64,000 nt of DNA from the sequence record OQ446694.1. One strand, given 5' to 3'. Positions 10,701 to 55,289 of the stretch are shown in pieces (the first letter of the stretch is position 1; each line of letters begins with the position of its first letter). Under the pieces are notes generated by a model. The model saw only the letters and a program-made list of their open reading frames with translations. It was not told the DNA's origin and did not search any database. This DNA comes from Escherichia phage Killian. Made by a program: the position numbers and the translations under genes.

Positions 10701-11021
10701 TTATTCTTTAAATCTAATCAATTTATTCATAGACTTTGAAACTTCTGCACGAACCTCATGTAAATTTTTGAGTTGCTCAAGACGCTGCGCATAGTAAGCA
10801 ATTTCATCTTCTTCGAGACAGTCCTGTGAATCTTCTTTAAGATAACGCGCATAGTCCTGGAAAGCGTTACGGACTACTTCCTGGAAGTCATCAAGACTTT
10901 GAATTTTCTTAGGAGCAACAGATACACGACGAGGGGCAGTATAATACTCATAACCAAACCCTGCGCTTAATTGAGCCATTAATATTTTTCCTCTGGTTGG
11001 AACACAGCACGACAAGCCCAC
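10701..11021 (-). CDS. Hypothetical protein (106 aa)
   Basis: ORF track. Confidence 0.5.
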
Positions 11022-11245
11022 ATACTGGCTTCTTTGAGTTTCGTTTTAGCAATAGTTAACTGATCAAGACTTTCAGCATAATTCTTCGCGAATTCACAGT
11101 CTTCACAATTATCTAGCGCTTCCCAGAATTCATCATATAAAGCATCAAAGATAAGTCCTAAACGAACTTCAGCATCTTTGATAGCATTCACTTTACTGAT
11201 TTTATCGTCAGTATGTGGCTTATAACCTTTAATGTCTTCAATCAT
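10979..11245 (-). CDS. Hypothetical acidic protein (88 aa)
   Basis: ORF track. Confidence 0.5.
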
Positions 11246-11459
11246 ATTTTACTTCCTCACCTGTTCCCAAATCGTATTCAACTAAACGAATAGGTTCATG
11301 AATGCCATATCCTTGAACAGAAATTTCTGTCGTAGGATAAATTCCATTAATATCACCCATGTTCCACGCTTCATTAAATTGCTGTTCGCCTGAATTACTA
11401 AACCACTCGGCGAAAGCATTTAGCACATCTTCAGAACCTTCAATAATTATCTTTGCCAT
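11238..11459 (-). CDS. Hypothetical acidic protein (73 aa)
   Basis: ORF track. Confidence 0.5.
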   Translation of the reverse strand: MAKIIIEGSEDVLNAFAEWFSNSGEQQFNEAWNMGDINGIYPTTEISVQGYGIHEPIRLVEYDLGTGEEVKYD

Positions 11460-11833
11460 TACAAACTCTCAGTAAAGGTACGAGCAATAACGTCGCGTTG
11501 CTGCTCCGGAGTCAGAGAGTTAAAGCGAACTGCGTATCCGGATACACGGATGGTCAGCTGCGGATATTTTTCCGGATGCTTAACTGCATCTTCCAGAGTT
11601 TCGCGACGCAGAACGTTTACGTTCAGGTGTTGACCACCCTCGATTTTAACTGTAGGTTGTGTTTCAATTTCAATTTCACGGGCATGCAAACCATAGAAAA
11701 TTTCTGGGTCTACAAAAGAGTCCTCTTTAAAGGTTTTAGAGACAATAATTCGTGCTTGAATACCATCTTCAAAATAAATAGTACCTTTATGTGTGCCTTC
11801 AAGAATTTGATATGCTTTCATATACCCTCTCAA
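11459..11833 (-). CDS. Autonomous glycyl-radical cofactor (GrcA/YfiD-like)
   Basis: C-terminal half [59 protein letters not shown] carries the RVSGYAV glycyl-radical motif and is near-identical to E. coli GrcA as I recall it. Confidence 0.85.
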
Positions 11834-12210
11834 TTAGAAAATAAATTTATCCAAGATTGCTCTTTAATTAAAAATGGCTCAGAATCATATGCCATCAAAC
11901 TTTGGGTGATTAGTCCTTTAAAAGGTCCATCAATAAATTCCATGGTAAAATATGGAATTTTATTCATTAATCTTGCATTAGGAGCAGTGCACAAAACTCT
12001 GCATCCTTTGAATACGCCTTTTTGTAATTTGTATTGCTTAGGATAAAATTCGCTCAAGACGTTGTTATTTGCCAAAATTTCAAAATGATTCACCAACTTA
12101 TTTTTAATAGTTTTTGGTGAAAAATAAAGATATTCGAAAAGCTGTGTGTCTGTCATCATTGCATTCCGATTACGAAAAACTGCGGACGAGTAATACCACC
12201 GATGCAGCAT
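11830..12210 (-). CDS. Hypothetical protein (126 aa)
   Basis: ORF track. Confidence 0.5.
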
Positions 12211-12746
12211 TTACTATTGCAACAGTATTGTACAGTTTCAATATGAATATCGTAAATTTTATCCATATCAGGAGATTTAACAGGCTCATCGATTATATAC
12301 AGAATTCGAGAAAGCGTTAAACCTCTGAACTTGCTACCTCTATTACCAACAAAACTACGGACAGAATCAGTAAATAAACGGAATCGAATATCATCGCTAG
12401 AATAACGAGAAAATTCTTTTTTAATGTGGTCCGCAGAAATTTTAGCGTAAGATGAAGTATTAGAAAGAACAATAACTGTTCCACCGTCATACAACCAATT
12501 AGCAGCAAAGTTAGTCACAGCAATTGATTTACCGGATTGACGTCCACCATCTAGTCGAAGTGTGCAGTATTCTTTAAATAAATGTGGCGAATCAGGTACA
12601 TAAAATCCACTATTACAAATTTCTTCTACTCTAGCATCAGAATGGTGTGTAAAAGCATTCATCAGGGATAGATAAGGACCAGTTAAAAATGTTCTCATTT
12701 TGTTATCTCTAAATTTGGGCCATTCCATGGCGCATGAATTTTCCAT
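12156..12746 (-). CDS. Hypothetical protein with P-loop-like motif (start uncertain)
   Basis: GGRQSGKS Walker-A-like and YIIDEP Walker-B-like motifs; 5' end overlaps the extended denV ORF. Confidence 0.45.
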
Positions 12747-13260
12747 TTCTGTATTTACCCATTACCGCACTTGGGCTCGACCTTATTACAGGTTGGCGGG
12801 AATCCCTCATAGAATCATGAGGTCCAGCTTGTTCCCATGTTATTTGAATGTAAATATTTTTGCCGTAGTATTTATACCAGTGTGGCTTCATTAAAATTTT
12901 TTCATCGAGTCGTTGTTGACTCAACTTAATAGCTGATTTGCATGGGTTATAATCATTTTTCCATTCTGCTGGAATATCGCTGATGTCAGGAACTTCAGTA
13001 TCTTTTATACTAAACCCACGTTTTAAGCATTCCATTATAATGTCTGATTGACGCTTTCGCAAAAATTCTAACTTATCGTAAAAGAACGTGACATGACCAG
13101 AACCTAAAATAAACTCGGAAGATATTTTAAAATCTTTAACCCGTTTACCATTTGCCACGTGTTTACGAACTATACCAAAAACACGTGGCAATTCACGGTA
13201 TTCTGCAATTAAATGTTGGTCAGCAAGTTCAGATACTAAAGTCAAATTAATACGAGTCAT
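12709..13260 (-). CDS. denV: Endonuclease V (pyrimidine-dimer DNA glycosylase/AP lyase) with C-terminal extension
   Basis: [29 protein letters not shown]... matches T4 DenV N-terminus (catalytic Thr2 amine, Glu23); ORF runs to 183 aa versus 138 in T4 as recalled. Confidence 0.85.
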
Positions 13261-13317: not shown

Positions 13318-13620
13318 TTATTTACCTTTAATTACTTTAGCTGCTTCGATAGCCGCTTGCTGAAGGTCATCCATAGACATACCGAATTTAGAAGCAAAGT
13401 TATCAATTTTCTTTTCGACAGCATTCAAAGGCTTGGCCTGTTTACCTTCATTAGCGCCAGGAAGAGCGAGAATACGCTCTTTGTCAATATAAAGGCTTAC
13501 AAGTTTCTTACGGTCTTTATCGGACAAATCGTGAAATGAATGGGCCTTTTTATTTATAGCGGCTTCTAATTTACCTGCACTCACTCGCGCTTCAGTAATA
13601 AATTCTTGATATGTTTTCAT
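13318..13620 (-). CDS. ipII: Internal protein II (capsid-packaged, CTS-bearing)
   Basis: 100 aa; N-terminal capsid-targeting sequence MKTYQEFITE (gp21 cleavage after I-T-E); position between denV and e. Confidence 0.75.
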   Translation of the reverse strand: MKTYQEFITEARVSAGKLEAAINKKAHSFHDLSDKDRKKLVSLYIDKERILALPGANEGKQAKPLNAVEKKIDNFASKFGMSMDDLQQAAIEAAKVIKGK

Positions 13621-13691
13621 ATGTTTCCTTTAAATATTTTAATTAGTAATTGTGAATATATTATCGCAGTTTTAGGAGAAAATAAACAACT

Positions 13692-14222
<531 letters not shown>

Positions 14223-19241: not shown

Positions 19242-19318
<77 letters not shown>

Positions 19319-19321
19319 TAA

Positions 19322-19987
19322 TTAAAATTTCATTTTTCGACCTTTAAACCATCCTTCTGGAATTGGGTCAGTTTTCTTAATACGTTTAGAAACTTTTTCA
19401 TCTAATGAATGAATCCACATCATACCAAATTGGGAATTCTTTTCGCCCTGTTGATGTTTATTTCTGGCGTGAGATTCTTTCATTTTATTAATAGTTTCAG
19501 GAGTATGGGTCTTGCCCAAGAAAGATTTAGTATTTAAAAATTTCTCTCTATACTTAGGATTATCCCAAAGCTGTTTAAACCTTTCTGAACCCATTTTACG
19601 ATATTTTTCTTTAAGGTCTGGGTCGTTCTCAAATCTGGTTTTAAAAGCGGCAGCTCCTTTTAAGGAAGCTTCTTTCTTTTTATCCAAATATTCTTTAGTG
19701 TTTAAATGGTCCCAACCACCTTCACCACCTAATTTCAAATTATAAACATCAGGGCGCTTTAAAAACTCTTCAGTCACAATATTCTTTTCTGACTCAAACA
19801 TAGAGGTTTTATCGTCAAAGAACTCTAATATTTCTTTAGAAAAATTTTCTATACCATACTTATCTTGGGCTCTTTTTAATAATTTACCAGAACCCATATA
19901 TCCATCATCTAAATTTTCGGTAGAATGAGCGCCTATATAGATTTTATTATTAATTTTATTTGTTATTTTATAAATGTAATGGAACAT
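19322..19987 (-). CDS. segB: GIY-YIG homing endonuclease SegB
   Basis: 221 aa; N-terminal GIY-YIG motif (HYIYKITNKINNKIYIGAH); located between tRNA-Ile and tRNA-Arg as in T4. Confidence 0.85.
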   Translation of the reverse strand: MFHYIYKITNKINNKIYIGAHSTENLDDGYMGSGKLLKRAQDKYGIENFSKEILEFFDDKTSMFESEKNIVTEEFLKRPDVYNLKLGGEGGWDHLNTKEYLDKKKEASLKGAAAFKTRFENDPDLKEKYRKMGSERFKQLWDNPKYREKFLNTKSFLGKTHTPETINKMKESHARNKHQQGEKNSQFGMMWIHSLDEKVSKRIKKTDPIPEGWFKGRKMKF

Positions 19988-20018
19988 AAATATCTCCTAT
20001 TTCTAAGAGTATTTATGT

Positions 20019-20090
20019 TCCCAAAATATGGCCCTGGGTGGAATTGAACCACCATCTGGCGATTATGAGTCGCTTGCTTGAACCTTCCAG
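20019..20090 (-). tRNA. tRNA-Ile (anticodon CAU; T4 tRNA-Ile homolog, often auto-called tRNA-Met)
   Basis: Manual fold: acceptor GGCCCTG/CAGGGCC, anticodon loop CTCATAA, T-loop GGTTCAATTCC. Confidence 0.75.
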
Positions 20091-20096
20091 CTACAG

Positions 20097-20169
20097 GGCC
20101 TTGATATGCTGATTGACGGAATCGAACCGCCGACATCCTCATTACAAGTGAGGTGCTCTACCTACTGAG
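20097..20169 (-). tRNA. tRNA-Thr (anticodon UGU)
   Basis: Manual fold: acceptor GCTGATT/AATCAGC, anticodon loop CTTGTAA, T-loop GGTTCGATTCC. Confidence 0.8.
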
Positions 20170-20176
20170 CTAAATC

Positions 20177-20263
20177 AGCGAAATTACGGAGGCGATAGGA
20201 TTTGAACCTATGAGTCGCCGGAGCGACTGCCGGTTTTCAAGACCGGTGCATTAAACCACTCTG
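20177..20263 (-). tRNA. tRNA-Ser (anticodon UGA), type II with long variable arm
   Basis: Manual fold: acceptor GGAGGCG/CGCCTCC, anticodon loop CTTGAAA, variable arm GTCGCTCCGGCGACT. Confidence 0.8.
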
Positions 20264-20265
20264 CC

Positions 20266-20339
20266 ACGCCTCCAGTCTCCGCGGCAGGATTTGAACCTGC
20301 GACATTCTGCTCCCAAAGCAGACGCTCTACCAAACTGAG
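20266..20339 (-). tRNA. tRNA-Pro (anticodon UGG)
   Basis: Manual fold: anticodon stem CTGCT/AGCAG with loop TTTGGGA; 2 nt from tRNA-Ser (dimeric precursor arrangement). Confidence 0.8.
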
Positions 20340-20352
20340 CTACACGGAGTAA

Positions 20353-20516
<164 letters not shown>

Positions 20517-20532
20517 CCATTCTCGCTCTATA

Positions 20533-53723: not shown

Positions 53724-55289
53724 ATGACTATCAAAACTAAAGCTGAACTTTTGAACAAATGGAAGCCATTACTGGAAGGTGAAGGTTTACCGGAAATTGC
53801 TAATAGCAAACAAGCGATTATCGCTAAAATCTTTGAAAACCAGGAAAAAGATTTCCAGACAGCTCCAGAGTACAAAGACGAAAAAATCGCTCAGGCGTTC
53901 GGTTCTTTCTTAACAGAAGCTGAAATCGGTGGTGACCACGGTTACAACGCTACTAACATTGCTGCTGGTCAGACTTCTGGCGCAGTAACTCAGATTGGCC
54001 CAGCTGTTATGGGTATGGTACGTCGTGCTATTCCTAACCTGATTGCTTTCGATATTTGTGGTGTTCAGCCGATGAACAGCCCGACTGGTCAGGTATTCGC
54101 ACTGCGCGCAGTATATGGTAAAGACCCAATCGCTGCTGATGCTAAAGAAGCATTCCACCCAATGTATGGTCCAGATGCAATGTTCTCTGGTCAGGGTGCT
54201 GCTAAGAAATTCCCAGCTCTGGCTGCTAGCACACAAACCAAAGTAGGTGATATCTATACTCACTTCTTCCAGGAAACTGGTACTGTATATCTGCAAGCTT
54301 CTGCTCAAGTAACAATTAGTTCTACTGCAGATGATGCAGCTAAATTAGATGCTGAAATTAAGAAACAAATGGAAGCTGGCGCATTGGTAGAAATCGCTGA
54401 AGGTATGGCTACTTCTATCGCTGAACTTCAGGAAGGTTTCAACGGTTCTACCGATAACCCATGGAATGAAATGGGCTTCCGTATCGATAAACAAGTTATC
54501 GAAGCTAAATCTCGTCAGCTGAAAGCTGCTTACTCTATCGAATTAGCACAAGACCTCCGCGCTGTTCACGGTATGGATGCTGATGCTGAACTGTCTGGTA
54601 TTCTGGCTACCGAAATCATGTTGGAAATCAACCGTGAAGTTGTTGATTGGATTAACTACTCAGCTCAGGTTGGTAAATCTGGTATGACCCTGACTCCGGG
54701 TTCTAAAGCTGGTGTATTTGACTTCCAGGATCCGATTGATATTCGTGGTGCTCGCTGGGCGGGTGAATCCTTTAAAGCTCTGTTGTTCCAGATTGACAAA
54801 GAAGCAGTTGAAATTGCTCGTCAGACCGGTCGTGGTGAAGGTAACTTCATTATCGCTTCCCGTAACGTAGTTAACGTTCTGGCTTCAGTTGATACTGGCA
54901 TTTCTTATGCTGCACAGGGTCTGGCTACCGGCTTTAACACTGATACTACCAAGTCAGTATTTGCTGGTGTTCTGGGTGGTAAATACCGTGTATATATCGA
55001 CCAGTATGCTAAACAGGATTATTTCACTGTAGGTTATAAAGGTCCGAACGAAATGGATGCTGGTATTTACTACGCTCCATATGTAGCTCTGACTCCGCTG
55101 CGTGGTTCCGATCCGAAGAACTTCCAACCGGTAATGGGATTCAAAACTCGTTACGGTATCGGTATCAACCCATTTGCAGAATCCGCTGCTCAGGCTCCGG
55201 CTTCTCGCATCCAGAGCGGTATGCCTTCTATTCTGAATAGCCTTGGTAAAAACGCTTACTTCCGCCGTGTATATGTTAAAGGTATCTAA
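53724..55289 (+). CDS. 23: gp23 major capsid protein
   Basis: 521 aa, MTIKTKAELLNKWKPLLEGEGLPEIANSKQAIIAKIFENQEKDFQTAPEYKDEKIAQAFGSFLTEAEIGGDHGYNA... matches T4 gp23. Confidence 0.98.
   Translation: MTIKTKAELLNKWKPLLEGEGLPEIANSKQAIIAKIFENQEKDFQTAPEYKDEKIAQAFGSFLTEAEIGGDHGYNATNIAAGQTSGAVTQIGPAVMGMVRRAIPNLIAFDICGVQPMNSPTGQVFALRAVYGKDPIAADAKEAFHPMYGPDAMFSGQGAAKKFPALAASTQTKVGDIYTHFFQETGTVYLQASAQVTISSTADDAAKLDAEIKKQMEAGALVEIAEGMATSIAELQEGFNGSTDNPWNEMGFRIDKQVIEAKSRQLKAAYSIELAQDLRAVHGMDADAELSGILATEIMLEINREVVDWINYSAQVGKSGMTLTPGSKAGVFDFQDPIDIRGARWAGESFKALLFQIDKEAVEIARQTGRGEGNFIIASRNVVNVLASVDTGISYAAQGLATGFNTDTTKSVFAGVLGGKYRVYIDQYAKQDYFTVGYKGPNEMDAGIYYAPYVALTPLRGSDPKNFQPVMGFKTRYGIGINPFAESAAQAPASRIQSGMPSILNSLGKNAYFRRVYVKGI

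Follow-up and report, generated by a model that had tools for sequence, protein, structure and literature searches.

The vs.6 gene of a T4-type coliphage: a glycyl-radical spare part whose 3′ half was very probably overwritten by Escherichia grcA

Within the window, i.e. the whole 64,000 nt stretch of Escherichia phage Killian DNA (OQ446694.1) that was analysed, an open reading frame on the minus strand encodes a small protein with the C-terminus of the E. coli autonomous glycyl-radical cofactor GrcA (also named YfiD). An initial annotation, made from the sequence alone, proposed a relatively recent capture from an enterobacterial host. What is this gene, how much of it came from a host, when did it come, and what would a phage do with it? 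The gene itself is vs.6 of a T4-type phage, the product of which is known as Y06I; it is already known and is not a new find, since annotations of it exist and the biochemistry of the T4 protein has been worked out. With high confidence, it is the orthologue of T4 vs.6 and encodes a stand-alone glycyl-radical spare part that would repair host pyruvate formate-lyase (PFL), with a 3′ half overwritten by Escherichia sequence. Only this patch is somewhat out of the ordinary.

The gene, its family and its T4 counterpart

The open reading frame 11459..11833 (minus strand) is present as first proposed, and its product includes the peptide quoted in the initial annotation; what changes is the start. 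An ATG at 11821, four codons downstream of the TTG at 11833, is the likelier initiation codon, because it is preceded by GAGAGGG and because annotated homologues, that of T4 included, start at the ATG. From there, the CDS measures 363 nt, as in T4, and the predicted product has 120 aa (13.8 kDa). The features of the locus, numbered along the window, are the following.

11459..11821, minus strand: vs.6, the GrcA-type gene (open reading frame, CDS length and neighbours as in T4, PHROG 1209, Pfam Gly_radical)
11822..11833, minus strand: 12 nt upstream of the ATG, comprising the alternative TTG start, the vs.7 stop codon TGA (11830–11832) and GAGAGGG as ribosome-binding site
11457..11461, minus strand: TAATG, overlap of the vs.6 stop and the vs.5 start, read from the sequence
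11238..11459, minus strand: vs.5 homologue, 73 aa, function not assigned, downstream neighbour
11830..12160 (start approximate), minus strand: vs.7 homologue, upstream neighbour (PHROG 2049)
11642..11821, minus strand: 5′ half of vs.6, residues 1–60, AT-rich and of phage lineage, corresponding to the disordered residues 1–60 of YfiD
11462..11641, minus strand: 3′ half of vs.6, residues 61–120, glycyl-radical domain and putative host-derived patch, equal to E. coli GrcA residues 68–127
11537..11539, minus strand: Gly95 codon, within the RVSGYAV motif; radical glycine predicted from alignments

The surrounding block follows the T4 order, with e, ipII, denV, vs.8, vs.7, vs.6, vs.5, vs.4, vs.3, regB, vs.1 and vs all on the minus strand. 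The match to PHROG 2049 starts at residue 18 of the longest vs.7 frame, and vs.5, which overlaps the end of vs.6, is probably translationally coupled to it. An antisense frame (11453–12046, plus strand, 197 aa) is without a Pfam match and is taken as a shadow of vs.6 and vs.7. Scans of positions 10900–12900 are uninformative, with nine promoter-like sites where 7.8 are expected and one terminator-like site where 1.3 are expected.

Several searches converge on the stand-alone GrcA/YfiD type. Pfam Gly_radical matches residues 60–101 of the vs.6 product (E = 2e-18), PHROG 1209 matches it over its full length (positions 1–121 of 121, E = 5e-63) and, in the PDB, residues 22–120 align to residues 28–127 of YfiD (6owr, E = 5e-42). 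The Pfam and 6owr matches are much too strong for chance and, together with the 60/60 C-terminal identity described below, bear out the claim that a phage carries a GrcA/YfiD-type cofactor gene. Its size and C-terminal radical domain fit what is expected of such a protein (about 120–130 aa, ~14 kDa). TIGR04365, the NCBIfam equivalog model for GrcA, scores 154.6 bits (E = 1.4e-45, profile positions 25–126 of 126) and does not reach its curated cut-off of 170, a shortfall caused by the first ~20 residues, which have diverged; RefSeq names the phage proteins GrcA despite this score. The N-terminal half is indeed diverged, as first noted, though with detectable homology to GrcA (35% identity over 40 aa, E = 2e-6), and the bacterial signature NSFWLLD is absent from it. 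An alignment of 12 phage and bacterial members is readable from end to end, and Gly95, within IRVSGYAV, is invariant among the aligned members. This residue, the predicted bearer of the radical, is equivalent to YfiD Gly102 and PflB Gly734.

The relationship with PflB is confined to one domain. In the PDB search, PflB residues 697–759 align to residues 58–120 of the phage protein (E = 5e-26); the fold-defining sequence and the radical motif are alike, and this PflB part is the one that the spare protein replaces. Vs.6 differs from PflB in being without the catalytic barrel and in its GrcA-type end, TESL, where PflB has TQSM, and NREMLLDAMEN in its sequence. A full-length formate C-acetyltransferase (a barrel of ~760 aa with Cys418/Cys419) is ruled out, as only the radical domain is present: the full-length PflB/TdcE model scores 89 bits where its cut-off is 994, and it matches only at its last ~65 profile positions. 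Public names for the 120-aa gene are inconsistent and include ‘pyruvate formate-lyase’, ‘glycerol dehydratase radical’, ‘ribonucleotide reductase subunit’ and ‘hypothetical protein’ (e.g. in MH051915.1, OM135583.1, AP018932.1 and MT682709.1); the first three misname a protein that consists of the radical domain only.

T4 Vs.6 is identical to the protein here at 119 of 120 residues, the exception being Thr54 (Pro54 in T4), and shares with it the locus between vs.7 and vs.5, the length and the E. coli-like 3′ patch. At the DNA level, the gene is 98.7% identical to that of phage EcNP1 and 96.7% to that of T4, and megablast finds it in 806 phage records, sensitive blastn in 1,452. Databases already list an identical protein from Tequatrovirus phages under the name GrcA, and the name vs.6 is used in the records of phages RB32, T4T and 44RR2.8t; with annotations in phage genomes by the hundred, the gene as such holds no novelty. 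We take Y06I to be the product of T4 vs.6. This agrees with the protein size given in the paper on Y06I and with the description of vs.6 as the small T4 ORF with a Gly_radical domain (PMC1524935). In that study, 6/6 T4-like genomes carry vs.6, which is among the few T4 ORFs of then unassigned function that are conserved in all T4-like genomes compared (Nolan et al. 2006, PMC1524935).

A chimeric gene and the donor of its 3′ half

The C-terminal ~65 residues had been described as near-identical to E. coli GrcA. The identity holds, and the length shrinks to 60 residues: the last 60 (EGGQHLNV...TFTESL) are 60/60 identical to those of E. coli GrcA/YfiD. When the DNA is compared with the grcA gene of a RefSeq E. 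coli chromosome, the last 183 nt (stop included) agree at 175 positions (95.6%), and all eight differences are synonymous. Protein and nucleotide alignments to E. coli GrcA, proposed at the outset as a check, therefore find similarity over the whole radical domain and not just over a short motif. Identity breaks off sharply at the 61st/62nd codon counted from the 3′ end. Of the 180 positions aligned upstream, 96 differ, as against 8 in 183 (Fisher p = 2e-27), and the 5′ half is only ~47% identical to E. coli grcA in nucleotides.

Base composition divides the gene in the same manner. The 3′ half has a GC content of 0.51 and a GC3 of 0.47 (0.42 in E. coli grcA) and stands at the 99.7th percentile (top 0.3%) among the 180-nt windows of the 64 kb. 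The 5′ half has a GC content of 0.33 and a GC3 of 0.18, in a genome of 36% GC. The comparison of codon usage with neighbouring genes, also suggested initially, gives a GC3 of 0.22–0.32 for thirteen of them, so that the 3′ half lies above this range and the 5′ half below it.

Which bacterium provided the 3′ half cannot be read from the protein, because the C-terminal 60 residues are conserved at 56–60 of 60 positions in all 55 bacterial genomes (Enterobacterales and Pasteurellaceae) whose grcA genes were compared as possible donors. Nucleotide identity of the 3′ half amounts to 95.6% and 94.0% for Escherichia, 88.5% for Citrobacter, 82.0% for Salmonella and 77% for Pasteurellaceae; over the same stretch, the grcA genes of E. 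coli and Salmonella are 85% identical. Because this identity peaks at Escherichia, the 3′ half appears to have left an Escherichia chromosome after the split from neighbouring genera. The direction from host to phage is indicated by two facts, namely that the two halves of bacterial grcA diverge similarly and that the patch has host composition.

In T4, the 3′ half is 97.3% identical to E. coli grcA, so that the version found here, at 95.6%, is slightly further drifted. Amelioration from GC to AT is not supported as the source of the eight synonymous changes, the directions of which are mixed. Three of the eight fall within the last ~10 nt, i.e. the last four sense codons (window 11457–11470, minus strand), just before the vs.5 start; this 3′-terminal cluster may mark the right end of a conversion tract or may reflect selection for vs.5 translation initiation.

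Compared with E. coli GrcA/YfiD (TIGR04365; 6owr), Vs.6 is alike in its stand-alone format of ~14 kDa, in its last 60 residues including RVSGYAV and in a homologous N-terminal half. It differs in being 7 residues shorter, in having first ~20 residues that are barely alignable, and in its setting, an AT-rich phage operon with overlapping neighbours, whereas E. coli grcA is a stand-alone chromosomal gene. Judged from the sequences, the supposed recent capture is a patch of host-to-phage gene conversion inside an old phage gene and not the capture of a whole gene. The claim of a recent enterobacterial origin thus survives for the 3′ half, with its Escherichia-specific synonymous sites, and fails for the gene as a whole, with its old 5′ half of phage composition.

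A probable course of events can be outlined. An old phage gene of the grcA type would have had its 3′ half overwritten through homologous recombination with the chromosomal grcA of an Escherichia host. The left crossover would lie within the conserved EGGQHLNV-coding stretch. On the right side, the tract would extend nearly to the stop and leave the last ~10 nt before the vs.5 start phage-type, a junction that can be placed only approximately. Overwriting from the 3′ side would account for a radical domain that is an exact copy of the host protein next to an N-terminal half that is phage-specific.

Parallel patches and the age of the gene

Phages of Klebsiella offer an informative parallel. 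The K. pneumoniae grcA DNA used for comparison comes from mislabelled chromosomal records in a plasmid collection. In the Klebsiella phage genus Jiaodavirus, the 3′ half is 96.5–98.2% identical to K. pneumoniae grcA, with ~130 nt of unbroken identity, as against 92.5% for K. aerogenes and 86–87% for E. coli, and 106 phage records are 95–99% identical to the K. pneumoniae sequence. Jiaodavirus Vs.6 resembles the protein here in gene, type of N-terminus, chimeric layout and left boundary, which falls at the same codon as in T4-type phages; its patch, in contrast, follows K. pneumoniae grcA, whereas the patch here follows E. coli grcA. The difference extends to two host-variable positions, E/K in Escherichia and L/E in Klebsiella, so that Escherichia and its phages have LEDAVKH, and Klebsiella and its phages LLDAVEH. 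In Jiaodavirus, too, the gene departs from host grcA over the final ~10 nt upstream of the vs.5 start that overlaps it (record L083, ~765–775). Over the 3′ half, the two phage genera are 86.7% identical to each other, and the host pair is likewise 86.7% identical.

Since parallel, identical synonymous changes need exchange, at least two independent host-to-phage replacements are indicated. The shared left boundary would be expected from homologous recombination, as crossovers within the conserved GAAGGTGGTCAGCACCTGAACGT stretch would leave no trace and, upstream of this stretch, identity would be too low for recombination. It is likely that the radical domain was overwritten at least twice by the grcA gene of the host genus (from Escherichia in Tequatrovirus and relatives, from Klebsiella in Jiaodavirus), with the N-terminal half kept. 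If true, this would be a natural case of gene conversion from host to lytic phage that holds a spare part in exact agreement with the host enzyme it repairs. No description of grcA exchange from host to phage was found in the literature searched, in a search far from exhaustive. The patch offers a compact and testable case of recombination between a lytic phage and the host chromosome, and it could be used for measuring host-to-phage gene conversion or for asking which residues must match host PFL. A related situation is that of cyanophage psbA, the lytic-phage copy of a short-lived or damage-prone host component, which exchanges segments with the host gene. There, the protein, the hosts and the chemistry of damage are different; here, only the functional half is host-matched.

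Could the C-terminal identity instead reflect purifying selection on the radical domain after an ancient capture, with no later exchange? The conservation of 56–60 of the 60 residues in all bacteria compared is what such selection would produce. Selection on the protein would leave the host-genus specificity of the synonymous identity unexplained, be it in this phage (95.6% to E. coli versus 82% to Salmonella) or in Klebsiella phages (96.5% to K. pneumoniae versus 86% to E. coli), as well as the host-like GC3 that the patch keeps in a genome of 36% GC; this account is very unlikely.

The host-matched pattern is not general. For Salmonella grcA, no host-matched phage patch was found (maximum 83.6%), and for Enterobacter grcA none appears among the matches listed (up to 86.3%), with one further record at 90–95%. 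In Roth23 and PF-CE2 (Pseudotevenvirus), the 3′ half is at most ~85% identical to any sampled bacterial grcA. T5-like phages show no grcA patch; among E. coli genomes, it is pflB that comes closest to their 3′ half, at 77.4%.

Two side observations concern these phages. The N-terminal halves of Vs.6 from Klebsiella phage Roth23 (L084, 401–763) and Enterobacter phage PF-CE2 (L085, 360–722) are nearly the same, and the proteins read LLDAVEH and LEDAVKH, respectively; this difference may stem from older exchanges or from selection for host-type residues. The homologue in the T5-like Escherichia phage APCEc03 (L086, 420–788) starts with MKAYQ and ends with TFTQAM, and the T5-like radical domain may derive from a different source.

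As a whole, vs.6 is old in T4-like phages and is not a recent acquisition. Its 5′ half occurs in other phage genera too, at 57–72% nucleotide identity; for genera with different hosts the range is 65–72%, the value for Klebsiella Jiaodavirus being 72%. A motif of the N-terminus is found again in phages of Klebsiella and Enterobacter, and MKAYQ even in T5-like phages. The patch has its own history. Among the 730 phage records that match the 3′ half of E. coli grcA, 643 do so at 90–98.4%, and none reaches 100% (maximum 98.4%). Yersinia-named Tequatroviruses carry the E. coli-type patch; more generally, in Yersinia- and Salmonella-named phages, the patch follows the phage genus and not the isolation host. 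The absence of any 100% match among these records and the distribution by phage genus argue for few, old events rather than for continuous homogenisation. The patch event looks ancestral to the phage group, with drift since then.

These data also bear on the idea that the entire gene was captured recently from E. coli, and that its N-terminal half, disordered and weakly constrained, then diverged fast. Such a history would accommodate both the near-identity of the C-terminal half to E. coli grcA DNA and the homology of the N-terminal half to the N-terminus of GrcA, a region disordered in YfiD. Synonymous sites, however, should then have diverged equally along the gene, and the 8 differences in 183 nt on the 3′ side contrast with 96 in 180 on the 5′ side. 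Moreover, the composition of the 5′ half is fully phage-like (GC3 of 0.18), this half is common to other phage genera, and vs.6 is conserved in distant T4-like phages. Whole-gene capture is thus highly improbable, and conversion of the 3′ half of an old phage gene is the preferred reading.

Role in infection and other features of the window

That GrcA repairs oxygen-damaged PFL, as the initial annotation stated, is documented for YfiD and for T4 Y06I in PMC8683613. Both are spare-part proteins of ~14 kDa, on which the PFL activase PFL-AE installs a glycyl radical and which form a complex with O2-cleaved PFL, whereby function is restored (Wagner et al. 2001, pmid 11444864, via Andorfer et al. 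2021, PMC8683613). In that source, YfiD and Y06I are given as the only validated spare-part proteins; residues 61–127 of YfiD suffice to replace PFL residues 696–759, and the disordered residues 1–60 raise radical installation ~4-fold while being dispensable for catalysis (PMC8683613).

By analogy, we infer that the phage protein carries a radical on Gly95 and repairs host PFL. In the mechanism worked out with YfiD and T4 Y06I, O2 cleaves active host PFL at its radical glycine, Gly734, and the spare-part protein docks on the cleaved enzyme as a substitute for the C-terminal radical domain, now missing. PFL-AE (PflA), the activase of the host, then installs a new radical, predicted on Gly95 in the present protein, and the conversion of pyruvate to acetyl-CoA and formate restarts. 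A phage would have reason to bring its own spare part because T4-type infection halts host gene expression and protein synthesis. The protein might in this way sustain fermentative flow of carbon and energy (acetyl-CoA, ATP) under microaerobic, gut-like conditions. The gene recalls to mind that T4-type coliphages come prepared for a gut in which oxygen fluctuates.

NrdD is also cleaved by oxygen, and it is conceivable that the phage protein serves the NrdD of the phage, or nucleotide metabolism generally, and not host PFL. A role of this kind was suggested by Nolan et al. (2006, PMC1524935), the Gly_radical domain being found in NrdD too. Yet the domain is an exact copy of a PFL-type GrcA, NrdD is absent among the 33 PDB matches and the 12 NCBIfam matches, the top ones being GrcA and PflB, and T4 Y06I works with PFL and PFL-AE (PMC8683613). 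There is little chance that NrdD is the true client. Least probable of all is a decoy that would titrate PFL-AE, or occupy PFL to no effect, and thereby slow the fermentation of the host: the phage N-terminal half does differ, and in YfiD that half influences activation and complex formation, but T4 Y06I, with one residue different, is reported to restore PFL (PMC8683613), and an exact host-type radical domain under selection fits a working part better.

Beyond vs.6, the window shows further departures from T4 or from its own average composition. The denV frame for endonuclease V (12709–13260, minus strand) encodes 183 aa and overlaps the vs.8 start (12746), whereas T4 denV has 138 aa. Small indels just before the position of the T4 stop shift the TAA out of frame and add 45 residues; the longer frame may reflect either a genuine extension of the C-terminus or an error in sequencing. 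The lysozyme gene e (13692–14186) and ipII (13318–13620) are only 71 nt apart (13621–13691), and ipIII, which occupies the position between e and ipII in T4, is absent here. Seven clustered tRNA genes (Arg, Met, Thr, Ser, Pro, Gly and Leu; 19242–20526, minus strand) explain the GC-rich spot near 20.1 kb, and two more GC-rich 180-nt windows occur near 54061 and 55051.
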